A stretch of DNA of 62,536 nt, the filler included, from Dirinaria sp. TL-2023a (taxonomy: Eukaryota), in the NCBI GenBank assembly GCA_051941275.1. It is 3 parts of 3 records of this genome, joined end to end, with 100 filler letters (N's around TTAATTAATTAA, not from the genome) between each part and the next. Parts side by side here need not be neighbours in the genome. Positions count along the whole stretch, not along the records: positions 20,932 to 41,757 come from JAVEBF010000276.1; 2 more parts are not named here. One strand, written 5' to 3'. The notes under the pieces were generated by a model. That model saw only the letters and a program-made list of their open reading frames with translations. It had not been told where the DNA came from and ran no database searches. Below, one piece after another: positions 15,256 through 55,941 of this stretch. Position 1 is the stretch's first letter; the number at the start of each line of letters is the position of its first letter. Both the position numbers and the translations under genes were made by a program.

Positions 15256-15722
15256 GATACTGGCCAATTAGCGAGAGGGTTTTCCCCGGGCTCAGCTTGA
15301 CGATGGAGAGACAAGGCTGAGGTGAAGCAAGAAGAAGCAAGAAGAAGCTCGTGCGACCTGTCACTTTATTGGGCTCAACATTTTATGACAAGGCGTCCGA
15401 CCAGGCCAGTCCTTGCGCCCAGAGAGCACAGACGCCTCCTCCCCTCCTGCTTTTCTTCTTACCTGTAACTTGCCATCGATGGACCTCTTCGACTTCCCAT
15501 CTTCATCACTACGGTACAGTACTGAACCAGTGCTGCTCCATCGAATGAATGATGACTGATGCGAGAGGTCTGCGATGTACTCTCCATTATTAGTCGTGAC
15601 TATACTTACCTTGCTCTACCTTACCTTAGCCTCTTCTCTCCGCCGCAACACGGTCAGGTGATCTGGTGATTACGTCACATCCTAGCGCACCCACACCGTC
15701 TAGCGTTTCGCGTCTTGAAAGC

Positions 15723-18700
15723 ATGTCTCGCAAACAGACGCTTAGCGACACATCTCCTTCTCCTTATGCCTCCTATTTCCCCCTCCCTTTCCCTGCTGCC
15801 TTAGATGCGGCAGGTTCACGCCTCCCCGATATACGAGCTCTGCAAAGACGCATACATAACAGCAGGGCGGTTTTGCAACGCTTGCCTCATAGCCCGGAGT
15901 ACACAGCAGAAAGATTAAAAATCGAGAACGAAGTGGGCATCATGCAGGGTAAGCTGCAAGCGCTGGAGCGGGAAGCAGATGCCCAACTACACGCCGACAA
16001 TATGAGGTTCCTGGAAGATAGTGGTGCAAAGGTGGGGAACGGGCAAGGCTCGCCCCAGGCTCTTACCTCTCCTGCCGGACCCCAGTCGAGCCGTCTGTCG
16101 ACACCTTGTCCAGATAGGTCCAGGAAGCGGGATAGAGGCAGCAGTAGCAGCAGCTCGAACGACCACATAACTAAGTCAATGCGCGCGACTCCAAGTCCTG
16201 CAGTCACCGGTCCTACAACTCCGGCATCGCCCGACTCTTTGGATTTTGAGGAGAGTGATGAGCTCATCCGTCTGCTGGGAGGTGATCCCAAACAGCATAT
16301 GCGCGAGATGCGCGAAGAACAGCGCAGAGAAGAGGAGGCTCTACAAGCCAGAAGGGAGCAAGAGCGAATGGATGAGGAAATGGCCAGACAAATGGAGGAA
16401 GCAGAAAATTCGCTCCTTGTGTCGTCACCAGAGCCGTCAGGCCCGGGAGCTAGATCTAGCCAACCACCTCGTGCTCATTCACAGACCTACTTCAGCCCCG
16501 GAGGTAGACTTCAAGCTCGCCAAGCGCAGACTCCTACCACTTTACCGTCCAGAAGCTCCCCTCATTCGTCCGCAAGAAACAACTACGACTCTCCTGGTAG
16601 GGCCAAGGTTGAGTATCCGTCCACGAAGCTAAGACCATTTCAACCGCAGAAGGCTCCGGATTTCATTGACCTTGGAGACGACGACGATTTCGTCGATCTG
16701 ACGGGAAACTCTAGTAGCCCTGTGGAAAATAACTCCCATCTTTGGCCCCCTGATGGATTCAATGTTTCAAGCGGACGTTCGCTACCGTGGGTAAAAAACG
16801 AGCGTCAGATTCCCACCGTCAACGCCGTCAACGGCTTCCTTGGTAATGAATCAGCCTACGCTCTACCGGGATCTTTTGCGAGCAATGGCATTCCCCAGCA
16901 AAGCTCTTCAGATTGGGGCACTACAGTAGGAAACTTTCTGCAGACAGGTCTGAATGCGGCTCAGAGCGTTTACAACGCTGGCTCCTCAATGCTAGATCCA
17001 TATTCTGCTTATGGCAGTGCAGGGTATGGGCCAGCAGGATCTTCAGACAATCCTATCCCATTCGGTGGCAACTATTCCCTTTCTAACAGGGATAATCTTG
17101 CGTACAGTGGCCTGAATGCCCATTCGATCGACATCAATGATCCACAAAATCAGGAGCTCATCAGTCGCTACCGAGACCGTGTTGACTACCTAACGCACGA
17201 TCCGACACGTACAACTGAGGAAATTAAATCCCTGTTAGAGAACATTCGGCCTGACGAGGATCTACCCAAGGAGAATCGCGAAGGCACGCCTGATGCCATG
17301 ACATACCCATTAATGGAACACCAGAAGCTTGGCCTTGCCTGGATGAGAAAGATGGAAGAAGGATCGAACAAAGGGGGGATCTTGGCAGATGATATGGGGT
17401 TGTAAGTTGGTATCTTTTCTTACTTTCTATACCTTGTTCAGACTTGATACGAGATTCGGAAATTTTTTGGTGTTTATGCACTCCACAATCAACCTTGCCG
17501 CTTGCAATCCCTCGGTGCAGAAGTACTAACTCTGAAACTATGTAGGGGCAAAACCATTCAAGCGCTTGCGCTCATGGTCTCGAGGCGATCGCAGGACCCT
17601 GGTCGTAAAACCACTTTGATCGTTGCACCGGTAGCATTGATGAAGCAATGGGAACGAGAAATTCGGCGGATGTTGAAACCAGACCGGCAGCACCGGCTGA
17701 GCACTTTCATCATGCATGGTCAAAATCGAAGTGCATCATGGGAAAAGCTACGAACGTTCGATGTGGTGCTGACGACATTTGGTACCTTGGCCACTGAGCT
17801 TAAACGCAAAGAAGGCATCGATATGGCCAAGAGGGCCAACCCGAACTGGAGGCCTATGGGCAAAGCCGACCAGCTACCACTCTTAGGCGACGGATGCAAG
17901 TGGTACCGGGTAATCATTGATGAAGCGCAATGCATCAAGAACAAAAACACCCGGGCTGCAGTTGCAGCCTCGTCTCTACAAACGCTCACAAGGTTTTGTA
18001 TGACAGGGACGCCAATGATGAACAATATCGGCGAGCTCTATTCCCTTATCCGTTTCCTGCGCATCAAACCTTACGATGTCTCGGAGGTATTTAATCGCGA
18101 TTTCGCCAACCCACTTAAGAGAGGCACAGGCGAGGGCGCCGAAAAGGCCATGCGAATGCTGCAAGCCCTTCTGAAGGCGATCCTACTTCGCCGAACCAAG
18201 AAATCGACAATCGATGGCAAGCCAATTTGCACTTTGCCAGAGCGGACCACGGAAGCGCAAGGTGCTGAATTCAGCAGCGACGAACGCGATTTCTATCGGG
18301 CTTTGGAAACACAGACGCAACTACAATTCAACAAGTATATCAAGGCTGGCACGGTGGGTAAAAATTACTCCAATGTGCTGGTTTTGTTACTGCGACTGCG
18401 CCAAGCCTGCTGTCATCCACACCTGATCAAGGACTTTGGGGTGGCATCTGGCAGTCCAGACCTGACTCTAGAGGAAATGCTAGAGGTTGCCAAAGAACTT
18501 GCTCCATCGGTCGTTGCTCAGATACGAGAAAGGACTGGCAGCGGAGATTTGGGTGGTCTCGAATGTCCGATATGCATGGACATGTCGGAAGATGCGTCTA
18601 TCATCATACCTTGCGGGCACAGCACTTGCTCTGAGTGCTTCGCTCGCATTACGGACCCTTCTCAGGCCATCGCCAATGGTGATGCTGAAGCTAACTCGAA

Positions 18701-19771
18701 CGGCATCAAGTGCCCAGAATGCCGCGGAAAGATCGACCTCCGGAAGGTCATAAACCATCAAGCCTTCAAAAAGGTACACATGCCTGGCTTCGCTGGGGAG
18801 GATTCGGGCTCCGGTACTGCAGCGCATGAGGATGAGGATGAGGACGACGATGACGAAGATGAAACAGAGGATGAGAGTGGAGAAAGCGATGTTGACTCGG
18901 ACGATTCGGGTAGTCTCAAGGATTTCGTCGTGGATGACGATGTCGTCGATGACGAAACGGGAGATGATTCCAACGATGATGCCGAAGGCTACCGCAAGGG
19001 CAAGACTCCTTTCGAGAAGTCGGCTACGCAGCAGAAGGAGAAGAGGAAGTCCAAGGGAAAGGGCAAAGGAAAAGCCGTTGAAAAACCGTCCAGAAAAACA
19101 CTTGCCCAACTCAAGAAAGAGGGTAACCGTAACGCTAAGGCACGGCAGAAATATCTAAACCGCCTTCGTAAAGAGTATGTGCCCAGCGCTAAGATTGAAA
19201 AGGTGATGGAAATCCTCCGCGCCATACAAGAAAGCAAGAGCGGCGAGAAGACTATCATTTTTAGTCAATTTACTTCGCTTCTCGACCTGCTTGAACTCCC
19301 GATCGCTGACGAGCACTGGAAATACAAACGCTACGATGGGAGCATGAATCCTAAAACACGTAATGAAGCAGTCCTTGAATTCACCGACAACGACGATTGC
19401 AAGATCATGCTCGTCTCTCTCAAAGCAGGCAATTCTGGCCTGAACCTGGTCGCAGCTTCTCAAGTCATCATCTTCGACCCCTTCTGGAATCCCTATATCG
19501 AAGAGCAGGCGATCGACCGTGCTCACCGTATTGGGCAATTGAGACCTGTCAAGGTCCACCGCATACTCGTACCGGACACGGTGGAAGATAGGATCCTGAA
19601 ACTACAAGAAGAGAAGAGATTGCTCATTGAGGGCGCGCTAGATGAGAAGGCCAGTCAAAACATCGGCAGATTGGGAATTAGGGAGCTGTCATACCTCTTT
19701 GTAAGTCGCTCCATTGCGATCTTCTTAACATGGCCTTTTGCTGATGTGTCTAGGGCGTGTCACACCGCTGA
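15723..19771 (+). CDS. ULS1: SNF2-family ATPase with RING finger, Uls1/Ris1 (Rrp1/2)-like SUMO-targeted ligase; exons 15723-17401, 17546-19700, 19754-19771
   Basis: GGILADDMGL|GKT Walker A, IIDEAQCIKN, CMTGTPMMN, RING CPIC..CGH..C..C..CPEC, QAIDRAHRIGQ; SIM-like DFIDL/FVDLT in N-term; GTAAGT donors at 17402 and 19701. Confidence 0.88.
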
Positions 19772-20831
19772 ATCACCAATAAAAATATCGCTAGTCTTCC
19801 GTTCCAGTTGTCTTCCTAATATCCACACTTGCCAATTCAGATCGACCGAAGTTCGTGCCTTCCCCAAGAACGTTGAATATTGCGCTAGTCAATCATTTGA
19901 CTACCTTACGGATTGATCATCACAGCTTAGCACCCGTATCCGTTCTCCCTTACTCTTCGAGCCTTCCTGCCTAGCCCACCATCAACCCAAATACCGCCCA
20001 CACCGACCAAATTCAGCACATTACAAATTCCGGTACCCCTTTCACTCATTGCACGAACCGAACCCCCAAAAAACCAAAAGAAAAAAAAAGTTTTCAAACA
20101 TTTAGAAGATACCCCTTCTGCTTGCGCAGACTTCGCCACAGGCATGGAGCAAGGGGCGGCGGAAAATGGAATGGAGGAAAAGTCTTATCTTTCTTGCTAT
20201 CGGAGGTCTTTGTTAAGCTTGTTTTAAGTACCTCAACTTTGAGGTAGTGACATGCCGCATGTCTTGCAAGCTACCTTGAGCTGCGCGCGCTATCTGCCTT
20301 TGTTAAATCACAGAATAGCATTGGAGAAGAAGGAGAAGAAGAAGAAGAAAGTGTATGGTACCTAAACTGTGCTGCTAGTCTAAAGTTACTTTACCTTATC
20401 ATTCTGCCCACTCCGTTTTTTACCTGGCTTTTCATTGCTCTTATCTTTTCACCTTGCGCTTATTCGAAGAATCAAACAAAAAAACAAAAACAAAAAGAGA
20501 TATCCACAAGTCATCATTCTGACATTATCGTCATCGTTGTTCAATTTTTTCTCTTTCGATCCTCTAATTAATCCTTCGCACCACTCAGATTTCATGCTCT
20601 AATATAAGGGGAATCTCACCACTACTACCAAAAAAAAGAGTCAATGGTATTTGACTTTGCCTAACTTTTCTTTCCTTCTTTTTTTACCCGCGACTTATGA
20701 TCCGTTTTATGGTGATACTTGATTTCTACTTCCCTCCTGACAGTCTCTTCAAAAAAAAAAAAAAAAAAAATTCCTTCCATCTCGCTCCCTACCCACCCAT
20801 CATCGAGAAAATCCCTACCAGAATACAATAT

Positions 20832-20931
20832 NNNNNNNNNNNNNNNNNNNNNNNNNNNNNNNNNNNNNNNNNNNNTTAATTAATTAANNNNNNNNNNNNN
20901 NNNNNNNNNNNNNNNNNNNNNNNNNNNNNNN
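20832..20931. other. Artificial contig linker (N44-TTAATTAATTAA-N44)
   Basis: Six-frame stop linker, identical to 41758-41857. Confidence 0.98.
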
Positions 20932-24765: not shown

Positions 24766-25688
24766 TGTTGTGGTGGTGGTTGCTTAATAGTGGTCAATCG
24801 TAAATGCTCAATTTTGTGGGGATTGAATTGCTTGACTCAGTTAGGAGAGATGCGGTCGAGTCTGATGACATCTGGTACATGAATTAAATGTGAAGGTTAG
24901 CTTACTTTACAAGTGTTGATGGATGAACGGTAATCTTACGTGATTTGCTCTAAATATTTAGGAGCAAGGGCGTAAATGCGTCCACTTTCTACTTGAGGTT
25001 CCTCTACCAGCCCTACACTCCCTTGAAACTTAATGCTTTTCTCATGGAAGTACTGTCTTGAAGTTCTCCTGTAGCGCGAGAGAAGCTAAACCAGTAGTCC
25101 AGACACTCTTTCCGCATCTGTTGCCCTCATGTGAATCGTTACAAATAGTTTTACTCTATTCAGAAATTACTGAGAGCAATAGTAAATGTGTTATCATGGC
25201 CATGCAAATCTTCGGCCACATCTTACTCAATCCAAAATCCCGTTTTGATTGGCGCTTGACTCATGAATAATTTAGCTACATTGATAAAAATGAGTCGCCC
25301 GGAGTTTGACTCGACGTCCAGTGTCTAAACCTAGAATATTTATCCTGTCGGTCACTTATCAAAAAAGAAAAGCTTTAAATCAATGGCAAGAGAGTATCAA
25401 TGATCGGAGATCAATTGAGATCTGACAAGTCTAGAGACCTGAACTATCGACTCTAAGATAGTCTCCTACGCTCAAAGGCCGATGAAAATACACGACTGAA
25501 CTGAATAATTTGTTCAAGGGAGAGTATTCCGAGAGATCAAACCCGGTTGAAGATCTGTATCTACTAGTGTCTCCAGATAAGTACTGAGCGGCATTAGTTC
25601 GAAAGAGCGGTGTAGGGAGGAGCTCTTATCACGACGCAACATTAACGACGAATAAACGTCCTTCTCGATTTGGACTTTGAGAGGCCCG

Positions 25689-27194
25689 CTATTGGGTCTT
25701 CATTGATGCTTCGAACATTCTCTCAACTTCAGCAACGAGGTCATAATTTACGACCCACTGCGTGTAATTGTCAAGCGGCAATTTACCTAGAGTGCAGGTT
25801 AGTTGAGAATATGCGGAGACTTTTAGAAATAAAGTTAAAGAACAAACCCTTGATCCAAATGAAAAGATACATGATATACTCTGCTAGGATGCCCTTCTCA
25901 CGCTTCATGTCACCCATCTGCTTGGCATGGTCTGCTATTCGCTTGGCTCTGGGCATGCGTACTGTACAGTAAGACTTGAATGCCATTTGAAGCAGTTCAT
26001 CTTGCCGTCTGGGGTGGCTTTGCGCATGGCGAAGGTTTTCGGCCAAAAACATACTCAGTGCCTGGGCATCCTCAAGTGCCTGGCTGGTTCCTTGCCCGCT
26101 GCTCGTTTGTAATGCATGCGCTGCGTCACCAACCAGAACAAGGCCGGGTGCTTCCCACGTTGGCAAGTCTGGAGTGGTCCAGGTGGGGTAGATCGAGTCT
26201 ACCGTCACCCCGCTAACGATCCTTTGTATGGTAGGATCTTTCCAGCCTGCGTAGCGACTCTGCAAATCATTACAGATCGCGACTTTATCGAAGTTGTCGG
26301 AAGATGGAAGTGAGGGAAGGGAGTAAGTAGACCACCAGACTGCCTGGGAGCCTGAAGCACAGACGGAAACGGCATTAGACGTTGACAAAGCCGAGGCACT
26401 GCAAGCACCATAGCCAAAAAAACCGTTGTATCCGAAGGTCATTGTCGTCGTGTTGGGTGGCTCATCGGAGGAAAGATACGACGCTGGAATAAAGCCGCCA
26501 ACGCCTACAAGACCCCTAAGGTAAATTAGAGGATTACTCTAGGTGAGCTACTGCTCGAGGTCGAAAGCAAGACTCACTCATACACCGCAGGAAGAGCGTC
26601 ATCTTTTCCATCGCCTGTGATGGCATTTTTGACGACGCTCCTCACACCATCAGCGCCAACGATGAAATCAGCTTCCAAGTCCGGTGAACCTTCTGCGAAG
26701 CAAGCTCGTGGGCGCTGAGACCCATTGCCTGGAATTACTTGGATCACTGTCTTGCACACCACGTCCTCGTCTGGAACTCGATCGCGTAAGCAGTCCCAGA
26801 TACCCTGTCTACTTGTTAGAATCGTATGCAGTGGTGGTTCGCCTGCATCGGTCATAGGAAAATCGGCAAGAGACCAGCCTTGCCGACTCTGAAGTCTGAA
26901 CTTTGAGACCGAGTAGGCCTGATTGATCACATCATCAAAAAGATCTTGGTCCAGGGTCTTGAGTACACGGAGGCCATTAGGCGCAATCCCTAAGGCGCCT
27001 CCTACACCTTGCGCAAAGCTGGCTGGGGCAGTTACAGAGGATTTGGACCGATGCTGGCGCCTCGGAGCTTCGTGTGATTCGCAGACGCAGATTTGGAGCG
27101 AAGTATCATGGGGAAGGGCTGGAGGAAGCAGCTTCTTGAGGAAGATATAGGTGCTCAACCCACTTATCCCCCCACCAACGATGATAATTTTCAT
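25689..27194 (-). CDS. FAD-dependent monooxygenase; exons 27194-26578, 26515-25848, 25786-25689
   Basis: IIIVGGGISG, IVGADGVRS and LVGDAAHALQTSSGQGTSQALEDA motifs; two GT-AG introns restore frame. Confidence 0.9.
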
Positions 27195-27943: not shown

Positions 27944-28887
27944 ATGCCAGTCTCACCCAGCGAGGAACCCGCAAGGGTCTCGCATAAACGGTCTAGCCCT
28001 TGCTCGTGTGAAGCGGACGACAGGCCCAGCAAAGCAGCCTAAGTGGCAGATGACGATCCTCAGGCTGTGGCGGAAGCTCGCACTGCCGACCTAGAGAGCC
28101 AGGTGAAAGAGCTTCATGATTTTCTTGACATCAATGGGCTTGTAAATGGTTCGTTTGCACACTCTAGGCGTGAACGACCAAGCTGATGATGTGCATAGAA
28201 GCTCCAAAATCCATACAATACCACCTGCTCCGTCGTCCCGATGCTGTAAAGAGACATGCTGCGCAGATAGAGACAGCCGCCACCAACAAATTTTTTAAAT
28301 TATACGCTAAGAACGGGAACGCAAAGAAGACCATGGTGACTTCAGACGACCTAAGCAGAGCAATGGTACCTTTCCTAAGGAAAGCGGAACACCTGTTGGA
28401 TATCCCGAATACAGCCGGTCTCGTGTTCGACCTTGTCAAGATGCTGGGAGAACATTCCTATGGAGAACTTGACACTGAGTCCGACGAGGGTAGGCCGTCA
28501 GATTCCATTGTCGATGAGCTACTTGAGCGGCTCGCACCGGAAAAGCGACTCGCAGAGCCGAATTGGGATTTCATCAAGGACTTGGAGGAGCTGAAGCGGG
28601 TGGCTGAAAAGTTTGCTGACTACGAAATGGAAAATTATTGCCCCCAAACCATCAAACTGCTTTCAAAATGGAAAGCCGCATCGAGGCGCACAATTCCCAA
28701 AACAGACGAGCAATCAGATGTATCGTCAGAGAAATACACAGCAGTAAACAAGGAGATAGCTAGCTCCGAGAAGCCTGCAAGGGTTCAACGGCCCAAGGAA
28801 AAGACAAGAAAGCTTACTATCCCGAAAATCAGGAGAAGAGGAATATCTTTCCAAAGCACCAGGAGCAGATTACTACCATATTATTAG
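27944..28887 (+). pseudogene. Hypothetical protein gene with an in-frame TAA (28040-28042) in exon 1; intron 28149-28198
   Basis: MPVSPSEEP...SKAA*VADDDPQAVAEARTADLESQVKELHDFLD continues through the stop and splices (GTTCGT..TAG) into ORF 28186-28887. Confidence 0.6.
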
Positions 28888-31207
28888 CTCCTATATTCAA
28901 TATTAGGTTCGATTCCTGTGGCGCTGGTACAATGGTGTAATTGTTTTGGTTCTTACTAGGCGTGTGAAACACCTGACCGAGGGATGTGTTTGAAGGATCC
29001 AAATCTTCACCTTTTGTCCTTAGCACGCTGCTGGGAATACCTCGGAAGACCTGCTTTATGGATTTTTCACAGAATTTTTCGATACGCCAGGAAAATGACA
29101 TTGGAATCTCCAGGCACAAGATTTAAGAACCAAGTACTACAATATCCAGGAAGATTTGTATATCCCTTCATCGTTCCTTAGTCCAACAATCGTATGGTGT
29201 GATTACAGACAAGCTACACGGTCCTGAACTAATATCTTACAAAATGTGCTCCTCGACAAAGTCTTGAAATTCTGCAACGTATGACGCATTATACAAGGTT
29301 AATTAGATTTACTCCTACTCCAGCACTCTAAGCTGCGGTCCATCTTGGTTCTTTTGCCTCGACTCTTTTTATACTACATAGTACTTTCTCCGCATGTTTC
29401 TAGCCCAGCTCTTCACCTTCGACACGGCATACACCCCACAATAACAAATTGCAAGTGATGATCACTCTTCAATTTCCAAGGTGCATTAGATGTTCACAGC
29501 CGGGCTTGCTGTTCATATCTACAACTCATAATACTACTTATCTCAGACATTGCTGCCCTACTTCTCTATACCATATCATTCTTTAAATTTCCTAACAATC
29601 ATCCTCGCGTGGGCTTGGGTCACAAATTTCGTATGTTGGGATACTTCGCAGACCATGTCGAGTCCCCACAGGGCTATAGCATGTAACCCAGTGTGTTGAT
29701 CGAACTAATTTAACCAGAGAGTCTTCTCTGCAGCCCTGGAATTCCCCCGAATGACAATACGGAAAACACCAGATTGCCGTATCCTTCGTTCTACCCTACA
29801 CACTGACCTGAATGCGCAACGCGACCAATGAACGAAGAGCATCTATGTCGAGAAGATGTCAGCAAACTGATCAAATGCGTCATGTTTATCCATCTTAAAC
29901 TCAGACTCAGCACGTCAAAAAGCCAGACAGCATTTTCGCGAACCTAGAGTGGCTCTCTACCTTCTAACTTGATGGTTGTGGATTCAGTGACGAAGCATTG
30001 CTTTTGAATCGCGCGATTTCTTCCCGAGCTCTGAGTTGAGAGACATGTGAAACCTTCCCGTACCTTATTTCTATTGAAAGTCAAATCTGTGACTCTGCTT
30101 TCATTTCAATACCTCTTACATTAGCGATTGAATATCGCTCATCACGAAAGCAGCGGCTCGTTGAGCCAAGTCTCTCTGTTTTGATTCGATGCTCGAACCT
30201 GGGAGACTAGATGAAATGAATAAGGGCAAAATCTGTGTCCCTGCTTTCATTGCATTTACTCAATCTCTTTTGCCCTCCACGAATTTCAGCTCAGCAATCA
30301 AGTTCCATTTTACCATTCAGAAGTTCAGGTCAGCAGTCGAGCTTCTCATGACTCCGCACAAAGTGCGGCTCAGTATTCGAGCGCAATCTAGTTCTTCAAA
30401 TAATCCAGCCCAGCAAAAAAGTTTTGTTTGACTCTGCAAAGTAATCAGCTTCACAAGGGTTCTCTTACAAAAGAGCAAAATATTCTGCTATACGAAATTT
30501 TCTTCTGGCTCTGCAAAGAGTTCAGCTTCACACCAAGTTTCGCTCTATTATTCATGACAAGAGTGTTAAGTGTGAAGCTCAGCCGCTAGTCTGCTTCTAA
30601 TTAGAGAGACGAAGCGCTCGGTCGCATGAGTCATCTAGTTTCTAATCAGTCGGATCGACTGGGCTTGGTTTGATGTGATTCTGGGATATCTGACTGCTAA
30701 TTATTTGTGCCCAACAATCCGCTCAATTCCTACGATGGATCCTTTGGATTGGTACCTTGACCTTGCCAACAGAAACGAAGATAGACCCTCCAATATGCGG
30801 CAGTTTCATTTAAACGTGAGTTGAATTCTGGACTTTTGAATGATTGATGAACGATTATCAATACATTGCCAGGGAAACAACATAGTCATGGTGTATACTT
30901 CTGAACGCTTCTGCTGATTCAACTATAGCATATTTGACTCAGATGAAGAAGCCCCGTTAAGGCTATATTCAAGGCTGCCAAGAACTGATGAATCAACTCA
31001 CAAGTAATCGCTAATCAGTCAGAAACCGTGTCGTCTCGTGAAGTGGATCAAAGATGTGGGTTGCTAAGAGACTATTGAAAATGATTTACGAACACTGAGA
31101 TTTCTAACCACATCTTGAAAGCTACGGCTATCGATTGCTAATCGCGATTTGACGCAAGAATTGCCACACTGATGTCAAATACGATAATGCCGCCAAAAAG
31201 CCAAATT

Positions 31208-31603
31208 CTAATTTGGCTCTACTCTGAGAAAATTTGTTCGCTTGACTCTTACCTTCTTGGTAGTCGCGAAAAGAACGAAGAAGACTGTATTACCACATCA
31301 TCAAAAGTTTTTACTCAACACCATCTCACCAATTGCTTTTAAATCACGATCCGAAGAATACTTCTCGATTGGTCAAAATTTAAATTCAATCATCGTAACA
31401 CATTTCTTCGCAACGATATTTTCTGCAATCTGTCTTCCTGAGGATTTCGTTTCTCGATATCAATTGCCACTTAGAAATCCTCTTATACAAGCTATATTCC
31501 ACGTTTGAAATTTTTCAGTAGTACAATTCTCCACAGGTTGCTCTTCAAAATCCCATTCTCAAAACACTGTTGCATCACGCGATCTTTTTGATTCGATCTG
31601 CAT
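31208..31603 (-). pseudogene. Possible decayed ORF with five internal TGA stops
   Basis: 132 codons, all internal stops TGA (VF*EW, GN*YR, KF*PI, NF**CG), consistent with TGG>TGA; family unrecognised. Confidence 0.35.
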
Positions 31604-31897
31604 TTGTTGATATTCTCAACTTTACACAAGTTGTGCTTCAGAAATCTATACTGTATGCCACGATCAGCGTTCAGAGGTCAACCTGGTTCTCTTATACATC
31701 CTTCTCCCTTTCACCGCTCATAAGCGTCACACTCTAAGAACAGACGTTTTATGTTACATGATGCCCAACTCGAAAAAGTTCTCTATCTTCAGCTAAGGAG
31801 TTAAGACTCACATCGCGCAGTGTTTTCCTTTGTCTCACAAACTTCGACCTCATAAAAGTCATAAGTGTTCGCGATCAAATCTTGAGTTAAGAGAGCA

Positions 31898-32560
31898 ATG
31901 TCGAATCGATTACCAAATGAGATTTTAATGAGATCTATACATTGAGACTTATGATCGTGAGTTGAATTTGAAATCGGACACACTGAAAGAGACTACTTAT
32001 GCGTCGAAGACATCACAGTTGACTTATTATGTTACGGGAACATTGGTAGCATCAACCAAGTCATTGATCTGTTTTGGACCCAGCACCAGGACTTTGCAGG
32101 CCCATACACCAGTACCTTTGGTACACCAGTCCTTCGTTGAGTGAGCCACGGGATTCCGTGCCAGCTTCACCGTTTTTTGGGCACCTTTTGGTCTGCAAGA
32201 ATTGCTCTCGCAACAGATTGTTCTTCTCATTCTTTCGGCATCAAACAAAAAAAGATCTCTCAAGCACAACTGAATCTTACACGTTCTTCGATCGTACATG
32301 CTATTTTGGTTCAGTCTCGAGACCGTGAAAGAATAATAAAATGTGGAAACTGTGCTCTTCAAAGAGCGAGAGAGATAAGATCATCATCTTATTTTGTTTG
32401 TATTCGCGAGAAAAGTTATTTCGAAGACGCATATGAAAATTGCAAATTCTCAAATCATAATATTTGATACTTATTATACGATCAAGATGAGATGTCTCAA
32501 ATGATGCTTTTTCCTCCCAGTCTTTTTCTTTTCTTTTTCTTTCTTTTTACTCGTCAGAGC
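31898..32560 (+). pseudogene. DUF3716-like Cys-rich protein relic, hypermutated
   Basis: RSSIVHAILVQSRDR..CGNC..SYFVCIREKSYFEDAYENCKFSNH fits the DUF3716 pattern RPS..AIL.QSRG..C..C..P(F/Y)..C...G.FGGAC.NCK with P>S, G>D/E/S, C>Y; internal stops all TGA. Confidence 0.65.
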
Positions 32561-32949
32561 ATTCAGCTCTCGTTGAAATGAGATGAATCAACAAACCCAA
32601 CTTCTAAGGCTTTTAGAAAGGTGGATAGGTTGACTACCAAAGTTCCGAATCTGCTCGCAGCCTGGCAGGAGAGAATCAGATATCTGAACCCCAGTGATTT
32701 TCTCCGCAGAAACGTCGCGCTCTCATGTGCCTCTCGAAATCACAGTGAAGATATAAATCGCGCGACGTGAAGCTCGAAAAATCGAAACGCTTCAATGCAC
32801 TCAATTTTCACGATTTCAGCACTCCTTGATCACCGCGTGAACTACCATGGCGTTAGAGCTAAGCTGTCTTTCTGGAACTGTTCAATGAAGCATATTTGTT
32901 TTATATCGCCCTCTTGTTTAATGATGGAGTGGAGCTGCGGTCTAGCGTT

Positions 32950-34780
32950 CTCAGCATGATACTGCTGCTCGTCGCTCTGCCATGGAACGTATCACCTAGG
33001 AACGGGTAGAGGAAGGAGCATCGACGTTACTTGAATGGCGAGAGACCAACTCAAGAACAAGATGTATTCTTCGAGAAAGCAGAATGGTACGACATAGACC
33101 ACAAAAGAGCTGGGGAGAAAAAGCCAGTATCGGTAGTCGCAAAGAAATAAGACGATGGATGAAACAATGGCTTCATTCTTGGAGAAAGAACGCGAGAGCA
33201 ATCTAAATCTCATCACCATCAATCTTTGTTCTGGCGGGTCAATCTTCAATCCTCAAAGATCCAGACCATCATCGCTTCCTTCTGGCTTTGGGAACGTGGA
33301 ATCAAAGTCACTCTACGCCGTTACAACCTGCCTCGATTTAGCTGAAGAGCAACGATGCTTTGATCGATACATCACCCGCTTCACGTCTTTTGAAACCTCA
33401 CTGCTGAAGCAAGAGCCAATCTCGGACCCCCTGCATTGCCTCGAAGAGACTTGCAAAAGTAGCCGAAGTTTCAGACGAATCAGTACTACTGATGGCGTTC
33501 TGCTAACAGCGTTATTCTGTCACAACAACATCATTATCGCTGTTTAAACGAACGGTGACTCTTGCGCAGGATAGAACTACTGATGGCAAGAGTCGTTATG
33601 GGAGATTTTAGATTTAGAACAAGAAAAATTACTGAGGAGCGGAAGGATGAAACGCACACCTTAGTAAGTGGTGTGGCTGAATATGGGCGATATTTGGAAA
33701 ACGGCAAGTGCAGAAACAACATTACTTCTCGCTTTCCATACCAACTAAAAACGCAGATATCAAGCCGCAAACAAAAACAAAGAAATAGCAGCTCAATCGC
33801 CGTCCTAGCGCTGTTGCACGACCTCATGATCATTCCCGATACTTTCTGAGACTCTTTCTGCGCGTGGTCCTCACCTTCTACACAACCTGGCAAACAAGGA
33901 CTATTTACTATCTCGGAGCTTACCTCTCGTGCCGCCCGATTTTAAAAAGTCGTTGATCAGGAAGACGATGATATCGAGCAAGCCGAAGAGAAAGAATGAG
34001 CTGGATGCCGATGAAGTGACTTGGACTCATTTCTATTGTGTTGAGAAGTTCTTTTGTGTTGTTTTTGATTTTTACCCTGTGCCACTGATGAAACCGAATC
34101 GATACTAGCGAAGATGAGGAGGTTTGTCCCTGACGCTTGCGAAATTGTATCCTTTCCATAAGCACATTGTGATCTGAATAAACCTCCGGTATCAGTTTCA
34201 TCATTTACTGCTGAAAAATGGTCACGATCAAGTTTTACTCCTGGATCATCAAGCGTAAAGAACAGATCTGCCTTCGAGACACCAGGGATAACTAATATTG
34301 AACATGGGTCGCGGCTCGAGAGGAGCGCCTTTCAACTGTTCTTCCACTGGACGTGGATGATCACAGAGCTAGTGGCTCGATTATATTTTCTAGAATCAAG
34401 TCTCAAAATGAACAAGTCTGACTTCCAAAGCAAGATTGACGTGTCTTCGAGTGCTCAGATCGCTCTGCAGACAATTGATCGAGTTTTTCGCATTGAGCAA
34501 ACTCGAATTTGTTTTATTTATGTATTGATCGTTGATCATTCTTATGATCAAATACTACAGACGACGACGACGAAAAAACAAATTGGCATTATCGCAAATC
34601 AAGAGAATTTAAAGCTCAAACAATTCAGTGTTCGCATTATTCAGCAAAAATGCGAGCAGTTGTATGTTCGACAGTTTGATCAACGATTCTCTCGAGTCGC
34701 ATGAGACAGTGTTCAGCATTTGAACATGAAAAATTCGTTCGAAAAAAAACAACGATTTCGCAGTCAACATCGATGACTCA
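32950..34780 (+). pseudogene. Decayed SNF2-family helicase
   Basis: AQIALQTIDRVFRIEQTRICFIYVL.VDHSYDQ (~34453-34550) reads as SNF2 motif VI QxxGRxxRIGQ with G>D and G>E; upstream ORF pieces are broken and the 5' boundary is approximate. Confidence 0.6.
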
Positions 34781-35126
34781 AAACGCGGAATCAGGCGAGC
34801 CGAAACGGTGGCTGGATACGCAGGATGCTGGTTTCAAAGAGCTATATTGTATATGTCTGCGACTTCGGCAATAATTTGAGATCGTACATGCATCATCGAT
34901 ATTTGGATAGATATTTCTCACCTAATCAAGCTAAACAGTATGCTATCATTGCAATAACATGTATTTTCGCTTCGCGCCTCGTGACTCGTGAATCTGATGT
35001 CCAGTCAAACCTTTTCTCCAGGCATTGAAGAACACCTTTGGCAGCTCCTGCGTAGCTCAGCCAGTAAGTATTGCCCGCATCTTACGAGGTAAATCATGGC
35101 ATACCGAGAGGAAGAAAACCGTCCAT

Positions 35127-36436
35127 CTACATTTGACCCCAATCCCGTTTCGCAGCACCATCAAGGTTATCAACACTCAGCATGCCCACCCCTTCGTGAA
35201 CCAGAACGTTCCATACGTGATCCCTCAAATTGATGGGCCAAGCCGGGGTATCCCAATACCTGGCCTTAAGGCCACGATTGTTCGCCTCACGTACTTGACC
35301 TCTAATGATCTCAATCTGGCTTGGTTTCAACATACCTAGCCAAGGAGAGCCAATAGCCTGAGCGAAAGATACGCTTGCGTAGTAGGAATTCTCTGATGTG
35401 TATAACGATGCATTCGCGGGCGGGTCCTCTTCGTTACCCCAGAGCTGGTCGAGAGGGGCATCGAAAAATATATCCCGATATGGGTTACTAATACTGGATG
35501 TTATAAGCTCAAGACGCGTGTTTCCCGTGCCCACAACGGTCACTTGACGATTAAGTAATGATGAGCCGTTGAGGTGCGTGAGGTAGCCTTGAGAGCGCAG
35601 TGGCGCAAGCTGATCAACTAGTAGAGGCAGCGTTACATCAGCATCGGACTTGATGTCGACCAACAGAGTCAGGGATGCGGTAGGATCAGTATCGAAGATG
35701 CCCCTTCTTTGTGAGTCCGGGCTGAAGGGCGAGTTGAGATTCTGACCATTTAGAATGTCCACGAGCGGGTTGACATAAAGCGAGCGGAGGCTCCGATTAG
35801 ACGACAGAGACGCTTTGGAATGGCCGACGAAGAGGTCACCGTTCTCCAGCCAGACGTCCGCTTCTATGCCGGTACATCCAGCCGCTAATGCGTTGTAGAG
35901 AGGCACCCGCCGCCAATAATCGTTGTGAGAGTGACAAGGTATGGGCACTATATCACGGCTGAAGTCGGTTGGCCATTCTGCCTCGTCCTCCGTTATTGTT
36001 CCCGCTTTACCCCAGGATGCTAATATTCTTTGGATATCGTTCCTTGGAATCTTCGAACTCAGGTGTATATCAACATAGATGAAGAGGGACAACAAGACAC
36101 TAATGGCTTATTAGTACTGAAATTGATTGCTCATTCGCGATGTAGCACTGACAAGTTTAGAACAATCGCTGTAATGGCAACTGCTTTAGCTGTGACGAAT
36201 TTTCTTGTCCGAGGCCTTATCCCTCGATGCATCACTGGCCTTGAAAAACCACGCCCGAAATTTCCGTCAGACGGGATTTTTCTAAGTTCTGGCTGCAAAT
36301 TTTGCAGACTTGTCTCGGGCAATGCGCTGTCGGGCGAGGTATCTCGTACCGACGTAGGATGGAAGACAATCGCAGGCTCCGCTGCAGTATATCTTGTAAG
36401 ATTGTGTTTGGACGACGGAACTCCCTTCAACGGCAT
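35127..36436 (-). CDS. AIM6: AIM6-family PLC-like phosphodiesterase with N-terminal membrane anchor; exons 36436-36153, 36099-35127
   Basis: DFSRDIVPIPCHSHNDYWRRVPLY.AL.AGCTGIEADVW, LTLLVDIK, ARYWDTP; 53-nt GTCAGT..TAG intron. Start codon uncertain. Confidence 0.82.
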
Positions 36437-41757: not shown

Positions 41758-41857
41758 NNNNNNNNNNNNNNNNNNNNNNNNNNNNNNNNNNNNNNNNNNN
41801 NTTAATTAATTAANNNNNNNNNNNNNNNNNNNNNNNNNNNNNNNNNNNNNNNNNNNN
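41758..41857. other. Artificial contig linker (N44-TTAATTAATTAA-N44)
   Basis: Identical to first linker. Confidence 0.98.
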
Positions 41858-49004: not shown

Positions 49005-52000
49005 GTGGCGCAACAGGATGGTCTGCAAGGGCGCCCAAAGCATGGACGCCTCGAAAACCTGTGTCGCTGTGCTGAGGCTGAGCCATCAATAATACCAGAA
49101 TCCCGATTTGAGGAGATATCGAGAGCACTAGAGGCAGTTGTCCAGAAAAAGGCATGGGCTTCGCGACCAAGGACGTATTTCATTCTATGGCAGGTCGGAC
49201 GTGTCGATGCTACGGAAGCTTTCATCGGACAGGGAATCAACGATACATCACTACCATACAAGAGCCGAAGTTCTTTGCCAGAAACTCTGCATTTTGGCGA
49301 GGCCCCTCAATTCCTGGAATGGCAAGATAGAGTTAGCAGTGATATCCCGCACTTGGAGCAAGGGAAGCACGTTCGCATCTCTAACGGTGATGCCCTCTTT
49401 GAAAGCGGCCGGAAGAGGTTGGGCGTTGGAAGCCAAGGGTAAGATTCATCTCATGAGATCAGTATGATGTCTATATGGCTGCTCACATATTCGTCGAACA
49501 TTGAGCATGAATCTATCGGGATCTTTTTAGGATTCTCTAATAAATGCTGACCGAAATTGCAGATCCACAGTCGTGGACAAAGTTACTAGCAAGGCCACAG
49601 TGAAAGTCTACGCCGCGGAAGCGGATAAATCGCACGAAAATTTTTGGTTACGACAAGCAGGCGCAGAAAGTCTACGAAAACGAGTTGAAGACCCTCAAAA
49701 AGGTGGCTGATCATGAACACTCATCAAAGTAAGAGGGACTTATACCGACAGAAAGTACATGGTGATGCTGTTAGATCCAGTCGCAGACGAGAACCTCAAG
49801 CAATATATGACTGGAGTATCTCAGCTCTCTGCCAAGGAGCAAGCTCGTTTCCGAACTTACTTTGGCTGCCTTGCTCACACTGTTCGATTTCTCCATGATC
49901 CGAATATCGAGGTCCCTCATAAAGACATCAAGCCTGAGAACGTGCTACTCAAGAATGGGCACCTTATCCTGACAGACTTTGGGACAGCTTTCGATTGGTC
50001 CAAGACTGGTCAGAGCATGACCCTAAGTAACGCTAAGGATTCCCGGACGCCACGATATCAAAGTCCGGAGTCTGCGCTGGGAGAGTTCCACCGCTCGTCA
50101 GACATCTGGTCACTCGGCGTGATGTTTCTTGAAATGGTCACCTCCCTTCGTGGCAAAACACTGGGAGAGATGGATTTCTTCCTCCAGGGACACGGCCAAT
50201 GCGCCACTAGTATACATCTCAACATTGAAGGTGCAATGAATTGGTTTGAACAATTGCAGGCTTACCACTTTGGCTCACCGATCGACAATGAGCCCTGACA
50301 TGGATAAAGGGAATGCTCAACCGCGTACGATCCAATCGACCGACGGCCGCACAGCTGTTCGATGATGTCGTGAGCTCTCAAGATGGGAGATTCTGCGGTG
50401 TGTGCTGTCAGGATGCAGAATCCAGCTGCAATGGCATTTCTGAAACCGAACGGGATGTGCTCTCTGACATTCTGGAACTTGATGAGCCCAACACTTTGAC
50501 ATATCCCAGCGGCCGACAATATGACGGTACTGTTTCAGACGATCGAACCTACGAGGGGTTAACGCCAAACTCGTCCTCCAACAACGAAGAAAGTGTAGAA
50601 TCTGCACGAATTGCGAGCCTGTTACATGCCTCAGTCCTAAAGTATCAGATTGCTTGTCAAAGCAACATAGACAACCCAGGGTATTCGCGCAGCTCATCTG
50701 CTAATTGTAAAATAAGTGATCAAGCCCTTAGGACACATTCAGCATCTCGACATGTCGTCCCGCAGATTGCATCCAGAGCATTCAAGTCCTCCATGGAGGC
50801 TTACTCGTCAACAGCTCAAAAGCTTGGGACTAATCCACAGTCAAAGAACTTTCACGAACGTGATTACTTCATACAATGGTTGTCTGGTGTTTTGGAATAG
50901 TTCGCCCACACGCCACCACAACACCGTTCATAGTTCTCAAAGTCAGCCAGTCATGAAAATTACGCTCCGAGTCTCGAAATACATAGGATCGAGCAATTCC
51001 TGCGCTCTTTACCAGAGGAGATCACAGGCTATGACGATTCCATGGGCGACTTTGAAGATTTTGGAATTACGCTGCCTTTTGAATCATCGAATCGAAGCCG
51101 AATAATGCCAGCCGTCTCTCGTCTCATGAAACGACCAAATAGTCAAGGGTACCTCCAACCTACGTCTCACTTGCTACATGAAGGAGATAATGAAGACCAA
51201 TTTGCTGATGACGAGAAGCCAAAATTGGTGCACTACGCCAGCAACGGAGATCTTCATTCGGCTTTAGCACTATCAAAGAAGCTTTGCATTTAATTAAGAG
51301 GGATGTCGAGGAGTTTGTAGCCATGATACAGCTTCCAAAAAGTAGACCGGAACCAGAGGCTGATGGTGCCATCGTACAGAATCAAACGCTGCTATTGGCT
51401 GGTTCTGCAAATGTAGAACATAGGCCTGCGGCTGGCGCAGATCTAAGATCACTCGTTGCAAAAGAGAGTGTTTTTGAAGATATCAGAGCTTGCACTGGCC
51501 ACACCGCTGATAAGGGGCCGGCAAATGCCGAAGCTCAACAGAAGCAAGAGGGAAGACGGCTAAAGAAAGTTGACCCTCGGACTCAAAGTGTGGTTCCGTC
51601 AAAAGCCGTGATAACTTTGGAAGCCCCTCCATCGAATGAAAAAGAGATTATTTTCAAAGATATCTCAATTCACACCGATCACACCGCTGATAAGAGTTCG
51701 GCAGGTGCCGAAGCTCAACATAAGCAGGAGGGTAGACAGCTGAACAAAAATGACCGTAGGACTCAAAGTGTGGCTTCATCAGAAGCCTTGATAACCTTGA
51801 AAAACCCTCGATCGACGGCATTCACTAGAAAGGACCCAGTGAGCCGCCGACGACACTTCGAACCTGCATCCGATATCATGAAGAGAATCCTGGACGATAA
51901 GTCCTCTGAGGTGCCAACATCAGTTATCGCTGCGAGGACGCGGGCTGCTGTATCAAGCGGCCGAATCGGTCTCCGTTGGAATGACAAAGCTTATGGGTAT

Positions 52001-52981
52001 CTGGCCAAATTTGTCGCGAAAGGAAAAGTCGGCGCGGTGAGGGAGTGCTTGAAGGCTGGCTGTAACCCAGGTACAGAAAAGAAGCCCCGTTGGTGGCCGA
52101 TATACAACGCAGTTAGAGGTGCAAGTGATGAGCACCTTAAATGTTTGAGGAAGTTGGTACTTTATGACGCGGACGTCAATGTAAGACAATCAAGGAATCG
52201 TAGGACGCCACTCCATTATGCGGTCGAGTCCAAGCGCTGGAAAAGCTATTCGTCTGTCATATATACTCTTCTGGCTCACGGTGCAGATCTAAACGCAAGA
52301 GACATGGCAAACGATCTGCCTCTCCTCATGCTCCTGGTTGGCAATGGCCGATTGCCGCAAGAAAAGCGTAATGCTCTCTTTCTGCTACTTGCGCCAAACT
52401 TTCAGACCAATCTAAACGTGACTCTTCCTGGTACTCTTGACAACCCGCTACACTTAGCCATACGCCGCAAGGATGCGTACACTGTAGACGCGATACTGGG
52501 GAAGATGAAGCAAATTGGCGGTTCGACACTGGACCTGATGATGTACGAATATAATGGTAGTGGCTTCACGCCACTACTCCTTGCATTAACTATCTTCCAG
52601 CTTGGTGAAGACTTGGATGAGGAGCTTCAGATCATTGAATACCTGCTCAAACATGGTGCCAGCGTTGATGACGCTGAAACAACACAAGGGAAAACTCCAC
52701 TACACCTAGTAATCGGTGTCAGCAAGAACACCATTGCCCTCGGACTGCTTTGCAGGCGCTCGGCCAATCCAGACCTACCTGACTTCGGGGGGCAGACGCC
52801 CAGAGCCTTGGTACGCAAACTACGATTTGATCATCCTCAAGACCAATGGTATCCATTTGCGCATAGTCGAATGACCAACAGATTGACAGCTAAGCACTAT
52901 CGGCCTCCTGAGTTTAACGCATTCCTTACTAAGGAACTAGAAACCCAGAGAGCCACTGATATACACGCGCCGCTCTTTTGA
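49005..52981 (+). pseudogene. Ser/Thr kinase + C-terminal ankyrin repeats, disrupted; intron 49439-49562
   Basis: LGVGSQG, YARKRI, HKDIKPEN, DFG, TPRYQSPE, SDIWSLG; ankyrin TPLH/NPLH/TPLL motifs. Frameshifts near 49615, 49720, 50296, 51285 and in-frame TAGs at 50898 and ~50931. Confidence 0.82.
51470..51800 (+). repeat. Diverged 180-bp (60-aa) tandem duplication
   Basis: ACACCGCTGATAAG...GCCGAAGCTCAACA...ACTCAAAGTGTGG recurs at a 180-nt offset (51501 vs 51681). Confidence 0.85.
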
Positions 52982-55753: not shown

Positions 55754-55941
55754 CGCTTGAGATTTTCCATGTCCCGTTCCGCGATATCCAAGGGAACTGT
55801 CTTCGTACATACTCTGAACGCATATATGACTTTAATGCAAGATACCCAATGCATACTACTTATTTGCAGCACGAAGCCGTTCGAATGTGCTCAACGACAG
55901 CAGCAGCAGCGATACAAAAAAATAGATTTTGCACACTAAAT

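Follow-up and report, generated by a model that had tools for sequence, protein, structure and literature searches.

The described fungal element that most resembles the locus reported here is REP9 of Zymoseptoria, for which the available portion of the source gives a length of 7.9 kb, four genes of which two carry DUF3716, an RVE transposase, 43-bp terminal inverted repeats (TIRs) and 6-bp duplications of the target site (TSDs), and copies in sister species that are pseudogenes killed by repeat-induced point mutation (RIP) (PMC8232023). REP9 is equated with Styx, a class II transposon related to IS3EU, in the accessible text of a second source (PMC10853768). DUF3716 is likewise present in host proteins such as Fusarium PSC58, for which an excerpt names NCU05718, a Neurospora protein that binds telomeric sequence, as the ortholog (PMC10776026), and AcademH, KolobokH and Helitron are named, in the part of a further source that was available, as helicase-bearing DNA transposons of fungi (PMC10799480). 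Here we describe a block of compositionally anomalous DNA from Dirinaria sp. TL-2023a (assembly GCA_051941275.1) that holds the fossils of a DUF3716-type gene and of an SNF2-family ATPase gene. The block lies at positions 29751-34800 of a stretch of 62,536 nucleotides, which was analyzed whole and is called the window. To our knowledge, the helicases of AcademH, KolobokH and Helitron are not of the SNF2 type.

Like REP9/Styx, the block is a multi-gene stretch of a few kilobases with a DUF3716-type gene, and its genes would have become pseudogenes by C-to-T change (PMC8232023, PMC10853768, both in part); the DUF3716-type gene expected of an IS3EU/REP9-like element is represented by the relic at 32222-32557. 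Unlike REP9/Styx, the block shows no RVE/DDE transposase, 43-bp TIRs or 6-bp TSD and was found in one copy in the window, and it holds a single DUF3716 relic, whereas REP9 is credited in the available text with two DUF3716 genes (PMC8232023). We lean, with modest confidence, towards reading it as a dead two-gene block that was degraded by C-to-T change at contexts other than CpA, and for which we infer a repeat or mobile origin. What the sequence shows is that each fossil is homologous to its family and has been disabled, and that the two lie in one stretch of shared unusual dinucleotides. Under the reading that we favor, the region at ~29.75-34.8 kb would be dead DNA with fossils of at least two plus-strand genes, namely a small cysteine-rich DUF3716-type gene and, ~1.9 kb downstream, the tail of an ISWI-like SNF2-family ATPase gene. 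Heavy C:G-to-T:A change at CpC and CpT would reflect a RIP-like process of a non-CpA kind, so that the segment would once have been duplicated or would have entered within a repetitive or mobile element. No part of the block would be functional today, and neither mobility machinery nor element ends would have survived.

The DUF3716-like pseudogene consists of a cysteine-rich domain and a T-rich tail at 32222-32557 on the plus strand, and it was identified by library homology and by tblastn. We used as a query the plus-strand frame at 32141-34780, which spans both relics and has 28 stops in 880 codons, and read it through these stops against 1.84 billion representative proteins. Exactly three proteins were matched, all at query residues 27-139 (113 residues): P0002 (E 1.4e-8, 42% identity), P0003 (E 1.5e-5) and P0004 (E 5.8e-4). 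Their scores against PF12511, which has a gathering score of 22, are 17.2 bits for P0002, 28.8 for P0003 and 30.6 for P0004, so that the relic is tied to DUF3716 through significant homology to two proteins, P0003 and P0004, that pass the family threshold. When relatives were compared with the whole window by tblastn, the sole matching site was 32222-32557 on the plus strand (E 8e-17 to 3e-10; 2.5e-14 for P0003 and 2.6e-10 for P0004), which places one copy only of this relic in the window. The alignment there has 43% identity over 70 amino acids, and the homology extends beyond an in-frame stop into the T-rich tract. That tract, a simple repeat at 32521-32548 on the plus strand, lies directly 3' of the domain, and P0003 and a further protein, P0005, have poly-Phe at the matching place. 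The claim of a DUF3716-like relic in the original prediction, a reading of the sequence alone, is borne out in this transitive way, and the pseudogene can be taken as confirmed by transitive homology only.

A profile search of an index of 5.8 billion proteins recovered the same three protein clusters and no others, and the relic appears to belong to a rare, divergent subfamily of DUF3716. A search for fused or longer forms of this subfamily found none, which is weak evidence. Host DUF3716 proteins such as PSC58 share the domain family with the relic and, in the accessible excerpt, hint at DNA binding (PMC10776026); in contrast to them, the relic falls in the divergent subfamily of three clusters found and is itself below the Pfam threshold. 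The domain probably serves as a module that binds zinc or DNA. An AlphaFold model of the DUF3716 alignment has a pLDDT (predicted local distance difference test score) of 44, and COP9 subunit 3, returned by a profile search of the PDB with this alignment, was rejected as a chance match (E 0.18). As a separate observation, extended runs of Phe and of Lys occur in P0003 and P0005, which have a very high content of F, I, N, K and Y and are encoded on contigs of ~52.5 kb. Judging by their composition, these two proteins resemble genes called in DNA of very high AT content and may possibly derive from mutated repeats of another genome.

Several features indicate that the DUF3716-type gene is dead. 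The 108-codon frame at 32141-32464 lacks a Met, and it is closed by an in-frame TGA at 32465-32467, in place of an Arg that is conserved in the relatives. The relic keeps 4 of the 7 Cys residues conserved in P0002-P0004, the other three being replaced by Ala (32429-32431), Tyr (32432-32434) and Tyr (32468-32470). The loss of Cys residues and the stop at the Arg position are as expected from a dead member of the family, and we conclude, from these sequence features, that the gene would no longer encode a working protein. It could be argued that the genes of the block are alive, with the stops spliced around or with premature stops restored by A-to-I mRNA editing, since PSC58, itself a DUF3716 protein, is described in the excerpt as needing restorative editing (PMC10776026). 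Editing of the TGA at the Arg position would yield Trp, not Arg; moreover, the frame through both relics is interrupted by its 28 stops, the DUF3716 frame has neither a Met nor three of its seven conserved Cys residues, and motifs I-IV of the SNF2 gene are absent. We therefore consider living genes extremely improbable.

The second fossil is the C-terminal lobe of an SNF2 ATPase at 34420-34611 on the plus strand, which runs from the end of motif V through the 'DxxWNP' region and motif VI (Q-x-x-D-R-x-x-R-I-x-Q) to the helix that follows. It is housed in the longest frame of the block, a stop-free run of 180 codons plus stop codon at 34162-34704 on the plus strand; the marked scarcity of TpA and CC/GG in this part of the block makes an open frame of such length less remarkable. 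The window also contains an intact SNF2/RING-finger helicase gene at 15630-19916 on the plus strand, and its product was aligned locally to the six frames of the block, with and without reversion of C-to-T and G-to-A changes and with calibration by codon shuffling. One mild signal was obtained (z 2.85 for the plain alignment; z 3.3, with 1 of 200 shuffles, for the reversion-aware one), and it lands exactly on motif VI, where QAIDRAHRIGQ of the intact protein is aligned with QTIDRVFRIEQ at 34468-34500. An SNF2-type motif VI (Q-x-x-D-R-x-H-R-x-G-Q) with its following helix is thus recognizable at 34468-34500, with the conserved His and Gly of the motif, and also WNP, replaced. Comparison of the frame at 34162-34701 with solved structures gave seven matches, all to ISWI-type remodelers, at query residues 87-150 and at the 'DSDWNPQxDLQAxDRAHRIGQ' region, and a 90-residue piece gave nine matches, all to structures of the ISWI/SNF2H type (best E 0.097).

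The weakness of these E-values called for a purpose-built SNF2 profile as a proper test. For this profile, 120 viral-contig stretches that encode the motif were fetched, and 73 open reading frames (ORFs) of at least 400 amino acids were aligned together with the intact gene of the window. With the C-lobe profile, the 180-codon frame scores 15.3 bits, compared with maxima of 9.7 bits when its own codons were shuffled 5,000 times and 9.9 bits in 5,000 draws of codons from the region. Taken family-wise over the six frames of 28901-35100, the best score is 15.6 bits at 34303-34842 on the plus strand, and 400 shuffles of the whole region gave a maximum of 10.2 bits and a median of 1.8 bits. When the profile is cut just after motif VI, the score is merely 4.6 bits, a value reached by 17 of 10,320 shuffled windows. 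The alignment with ISW1 extends back into the 'DSDWNP' region, and the reading of motif V was made by eye only. A scan of viral sequences with the intact SNF2 protein matched only its RING finger.

The resemblance to SNF2 might be due to chance or low complexity, which would leave the DUF3716 pseudogene as the only real fossil. This alternative draws on the shortness of the match (~45-64 residues), on the lack of any match to Pfam Helicase_C and SNF2-rel_dom, on the failure to find any other motif, on PDB E-values that are marginal and of a size that also arises by chance, and on the library search with the frame at 32141, in which no SNF2 protein was found, though the frame that houses the fossil was not read there. 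It is nevertheless very unlikely in our judgment, given that the calibrated shuffles, 10,000 in one test and 400 in the other, all stay below the observed score (margin of ~5 bits), that 9 of 9 PDB matches belong to one family and align at the homologous motif, that the match to the window's own SNF2 protein falls exactly on motif VI, and that SNF2 had already been named at this place beforehand.

The remainder of an SNF2 gene was not recovered. Regular expressions for the N-lobe motifs I, Ia, II (DExH) and III had no match in the block, an N-lobe profile gave nothing above shuffles, and a mutation-aware alignment gave z-scores of -1.5 to 0.3. Neither tblastn of the intact SNF2 protein nor regular expressions for SNF2 motifs in general produced a match in the block, and Pfam SNF2-rel_dom (PF00176) and Helicase_C (PF00271) had none in the six frames of 29001-35302 or in 45 ORFs. 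Candidates for motifs I-IV that had been picked by eye (about 32905, 33146, 33215 and 34040) were unsupported and have been withdrawn, and a by-eye candidate for motif V at 34235 is likewise unsupported. Pieces upstream of the fossil, when compared with the PDB, gave only PDP1 (E 0.65), TEX10 (E 0.28) or nothing, and no SNF2 protein. Whole frames of 880 residues missed the fossil in the PDB, probably as a result of the few bits that a longer query costs. The unrecognizable stretch between the relics, at 32600-34160 on the plus strand, is of a size that would fit an SNF2 gene's N-terminal two thirds, and none of motifs I-IV was detected in it. The original prediction of an SNF2 relic therefore stands for the C-terminal lobe at ~34420-34611, with ~60 residues recognizable by sequence comparison, and fails for motifs I-IV, which were not found with any model. 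The prediction was also right that the SNF2 relic is co-oriented with the DUF3716 relic, both being on the plus strand, and that it is unlike the intact SNF2/RING gene.

Among known SNF2 proteins, those of the ISWI type (yeast ISW1, Myceliophthora ISWI and human SNF2H) are the ones to which 34420-34611 aligns, at 'DSDWNPQxDLQAxDRAHRIGQ' and the helix, and they are the sole solved structures matched by the fossil, both as the 180-codon frame and as the 90-residue piece. Unlike ISWI proteins, the fossil is only ~60 residues long, has replacements at the His and Gly of motif VI and at WNP, lacks the N-lobe, and leaves no space for HAND-SANT-SLIDE domains ahead of the end of the block at ~34.8 kb. 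ISWI-type remodelers thus appear to be its nearest relatives, although a subfamily read from so short a fossil is a lead only.

The two fossils share a compositional setting that is distinct from the rest of the window. The block has a GC content of 0.35-0.47, is depleted in CC/GG and TpA, is enriched in TC/GA, is not depleted in CpG, and contains no open gene; over ~28.9-35.1 kb, GC is lowered to 0.38-0.45 and stops occur in all six frames. Seventeen of 245 windows of 500 bp have a CC/GG rho (the dinucleotide odds ratio) below 0.7, and 11 of these 17 lie within 29751-34750, with the lowest values (0.35-0.38) at 34251-35000. The median of (CC+GG)/(TC+GA) is 0.39 inside the block versus 0.74 outside it (Mann-Whitney p 5.5e-13, computed on overlapping windows). 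TCGA, GATC and CGCG are enriched among the tetranucleotides of the block, and CCGG and GGCC stand at 0.14 of expectation. With a dinucleotide model of target versus background, the top maximal-scoring segment (40.9 bits) is 30803-32594, the strongest left sub-block, which includes the DUF3716-like relic. The strongest right sub-block, at 34376-34782, has a CC/GG rho of 0.35-0.38, a CpG rho of 1.4-1.76 and a sharp right edge, and its end at 34782 agrees with the limit of 34780 given in the original prediction. A dinucleotide model trained solely on 31000-32600 picks 34379-34782 as the best segment in the remaining window (33.1 bits), which indicates that the relic-bearing ends share one signature. 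Apart from the block, non-coding DNA at 25001-25750 has a (CC+GG)/(TC+GA) of 0.37-0.42 and is the sole out-of-block member of the 16 lowest windows; it may record the process that marked the block, or spacers of this genome may have such a composition in general.

We simulated context-specific C-to-T change on ordinary sequence of the window and measured the distance of the product to the block, using two control sets. The best fit is given by change at CpC and CpT: for the two control sets, the distance falls to 0.020 and 0.027 from starting values of 0.061 and 0.075, respectively. A context-free C-to-T model comes second (0.036 and 0.032), and models of change at CpA and CpG barely help (0.060 and 0.058, from a start of 0.061). 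Fungal transposons are known to bear CpA, CpT and CpG signatures, the CpT type occurring in Botrytis, Sclerotinia and Magnaporthe, according to the available part of a survey (PMC4352252), and the CpC context is a formal possibility in RIPCAL (PMC2621366). The block resembles RIP and these CpT variants in its regional AT shift and in the fit of a context-specific C-to-T model (PMC4352252, in part), and it differs from RIP in having no CpA-to-TpA component at all, in being depleted in TpA, and in having its strongest depletion at CpC/GpG. No report of a dominant CpC signature in fungi was found in a limited look at the literature. The single mutational scar that had been predicted for the relics is therefore present as a shared, non-canonical dinucleotide signature over ~29.75-34.8 kb, and the canonical RIP indices that would make it ordinary RIP are not reached. 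The scar of the block is real, it is not canonical RIP, and C-to-T change at CpC/CpT is its best fit.

Several observations weigh against our favored reading. Canonical RIP is called at a TpA/ApT of at least 0.89 and a (CpA+TpG)/(ApC+GpT) of at most 1.03 (PMC2621366), and the values at 31001-35000 (0.46-0.68 and 1.21-1.43, respectively) clearly miss both thresholds. Nor does the block differ from the rest of the window in (CA+TG)/TA (p 0.97). In one control set the context-free model does nearly as well as the CpC+CpT model (0.032 versus 0.027). The G-to-A changes in the DUF3716 relic occur four times after A, twice after T, once after C and never after G. Neither relic is recognized directly by Pfam. 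The SNF2 matches in the PDB, with E-values of 0.1-1.5, are at chance level when taken alone, as unrelated pieces gave E-values of 0.28-0.65, and the members of the SNF2 profile were picked for an exact motif VI, so that the SNF2 signal rests largely on motif VI and the helix. The SNF2 N-lobe is absent even though the middle of the block is its least anomalous part. Lastly, nothing points to a second copy or to repetition in the past, the block being single-copy within the window.

Some of these points favor a serious rival, in which ordinary single-copy host genes or gene fragments died in place and drifted under normal AT-biased mutation with no repeat-directed process. A second copy, element ends and a transposase were all not found; the canonical RIP indices are negative; the context-free model of C-to-T change fits fairly well; and the ratio of (CC+GG)/(TC+GA) is likewise low (0.37-0.42) in the intergenic DNA at 25001-25750. 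On the other side, the signature is far stronger in the block than in the non-coding DNA elsewhere in the window, and it ends abruptly on the right. The block is also depleted in TpA, unlike the plain AT-rich spacer at 28.8-29.4 kb, where TpA is enriched, and its CpG is retained or even in excess, a state that speaks against simple decay of methylated C. Thirty-one columns of the DUF3716 relic differ from the majority of the three homologs, of which 17 can be explained by a single-base step, and G-to-A is the commonest of these steps (7 of 17). On this evidence, decay in place seems to us rather unlikely, though to be taken seriously, and degradation by a non-CpA C-to-T process remains the reading that we prefer.

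The mobile part of the preferred reading was examined through gene content, ends and copy number. Pfam searches were run at E up to 1 on whole frames and at E up to 10 on the ORF at 32141-32464, which itself falls below the PF12511 gathering score and has no family at the latter cut-off. Nothing above chance level was matched in Pfam by the six read-through frames of 29001-35302, by the 45 ORFs of at least 45 amino acids in 30.9-35.3 kb or by the 31 ORFs in 28.8-30.9 kb, and domains of DUF3716, SNF2, helicase, transposase, reverse transcriptase or recombinase type were missing from all three sets of results. The six frames and these 76 ORFs are likewise free of any rve/DDE transposase family in Pfam. 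These scans agree with the original prediction that no transposase, reverse transcriptase or recombinase is visible. Support from hidden Markov models for the two predicted domains is divided: Pfam supplies none for either relic, and it is supplied by the PF12511-passing homologs on the one hand and by the purpose-built SNF2 C-lobe profile on the other. Both relics were found only by short queries or by purpose-built, shuffle-calibrated profiles, and not by Pfam or whole-frame searches.

Element ends were equally elusive. No convincing inverted or direct terminal repeats were detected, a self-similarity search also gave nothing, and a repeat search returned only short arms of 73-89% identity. 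The best free inverted arms of 30 nt match at 20 of 30 positions and have no 6-bp duplication. Ends of the IS3EU type were sought with the motif TAYGG..CCRTA (PMC12730594) and were not found, the best TAYGG/CCRTA pair having 19 of 40 matches and 2 of 6 TSD matches. Within the window, a check for the ends and machinery of the predicted element thus came out negative for TIRs and a TSD as well as for rve/DDE and recombinase domains. Two metagenome scans for loci of the relatives each returned 263 pattern matches, of which none was confirmed. Nothing shows that the block was ever multicopy or mobile, and a mobile element is what we infer from the C-to-T signature.

A more specific alternative is that a DNA transposon of the REP9/Styx (IS3EU-like) type, with DUF3716 among its genes, left the block as its carcass; its transposase and ends would have decayed too far to be recognized, and the SNF2 piece would have been captured or be merely adjacent. 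The block is similar in size to REP9, which in the available text is 7.9 kb long, has DUF3716 in two of its four genes and includes copies killed by RIP (PMC8232023), and the proteins nearest to the relic have sequences such as very AT-rich DNA would encode. Set against this are the lack of any rve/DDE match in six frames, the failure to find TAYGG..CCRTA ends, a 30-bp inverted repeat with more than 20 of 30 matches or a 6-bp duplication, and the SNF2 gene itself: no mention of SNF2 or of a helicase was found in the portions of the REP9/Styx descriptions that were available. A REP9/Styx carcass is accordingly improbable. No more probable is a bolder reading that extends the original proposal, by which the block would be all that remains of a fungal mobile element not described before, or of cargo that a large element carried; in that element a DUF3716 DNA-binding protein would have been combined with an ISWI-like SNF2 remodeler of its own, and repeat-directed C-to-T change at CpC/CpT would have silenced it. 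We hold this reading to be a doubtful extension of the dead two-gene block that we favor.

The original prediction had also included a third relic, a minus-strand ORF, and this claim was not upheld. The interval in question, 31208-32140, is unrecognizable DNA in which neither an ORF nor homology was found. Its longest contained stop-to-stop frame on the minus strand is 63 amino acids long, and the three minus frames have 25, 15 and 20 stops in 333 codons, while one plus frame has just 8. No Pfam family was found in the interval, this plus frame, at 31140-32144, included. A word-index search with the minus frame at 33537-34331 also gave no match. The deficit of stops in the frame that starts at 32141 is merely marginal (28 in 880 codons, P about 0.05). 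Coding potential measured by codon usage is uninformative for the block because genuine genes reach just ~0.1-0.15 per codon, and Atlas, which gave a top score of 0.75 for 33137-33544, is uninformative because it failed on the DUF3716 relic as a positive control.

The surroundings of the block are constrained by the make-up of the window. Runs of N around TTAATTAATTAA at 20832-20931 and 41758-41857 are contig linkers, and the TTAATTAATTAA within them is a stop in all six frames. Because of the linkers at these two sites, the 62.5-kb window is three contigs joined artificially, and gene neighborhoods that cross a linker are not real. The relic block sits in the middle contig, 20932-41757. The intact SNF2/RING gene is on a different contig, so that its closeness to the relic is artificial. 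This gene consists of two long frames of 591 and 822 amino acids and matches both SNF2-rel_dom and Helicase_C strongly; its frame break at ~17405-17448, within motif I, is presumably an intron. The ORFs that flank the block, at 28174-28887 on the plus strand (237 amino acids) and 35127-36107 on the minus strand (326 amino acids), have no Pfam family.

Elsewhere in the window lie fungal-type genes for a HAMP-repeat hybrid histidine kinase, ORC2 and an RNA polymerase I subunit. An open frame of 1224 codons at 1010-4684 on the minus strand has no Pfam family at E up to 0.001. An ankyrin-repeat gene at 51212-52981 holds two tandem units of 179-180 nt with 78% identity (51457-51815, plus strand). 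GC rises to 0.56-0.61 at 55000-57200, across an M24 peptidase gene on the minus strand (55942-57183), and several long overlapping frames occur there on both strands. Rfam and tRNA scans gave no match.

The block is one decayed copy in a draft contig, and we offer it as a modest lead, not as a result. No description of a DUF3716-SNF2 pairing was found in the available parts of the literature searched, which included text on Starships, SNF2 and transposons. If intact relatives exist, a DUF3716 gene with a private SNF2 remodeler would be a pairing not described in that literature, and, if the two truly travel as a pair, this would give DUF3716 a first hint of its function. The scar, depleted in CC/GG and poor in TpA, could in turn mark a C-to-T process of a context that has not been reported as dominant in fungi.

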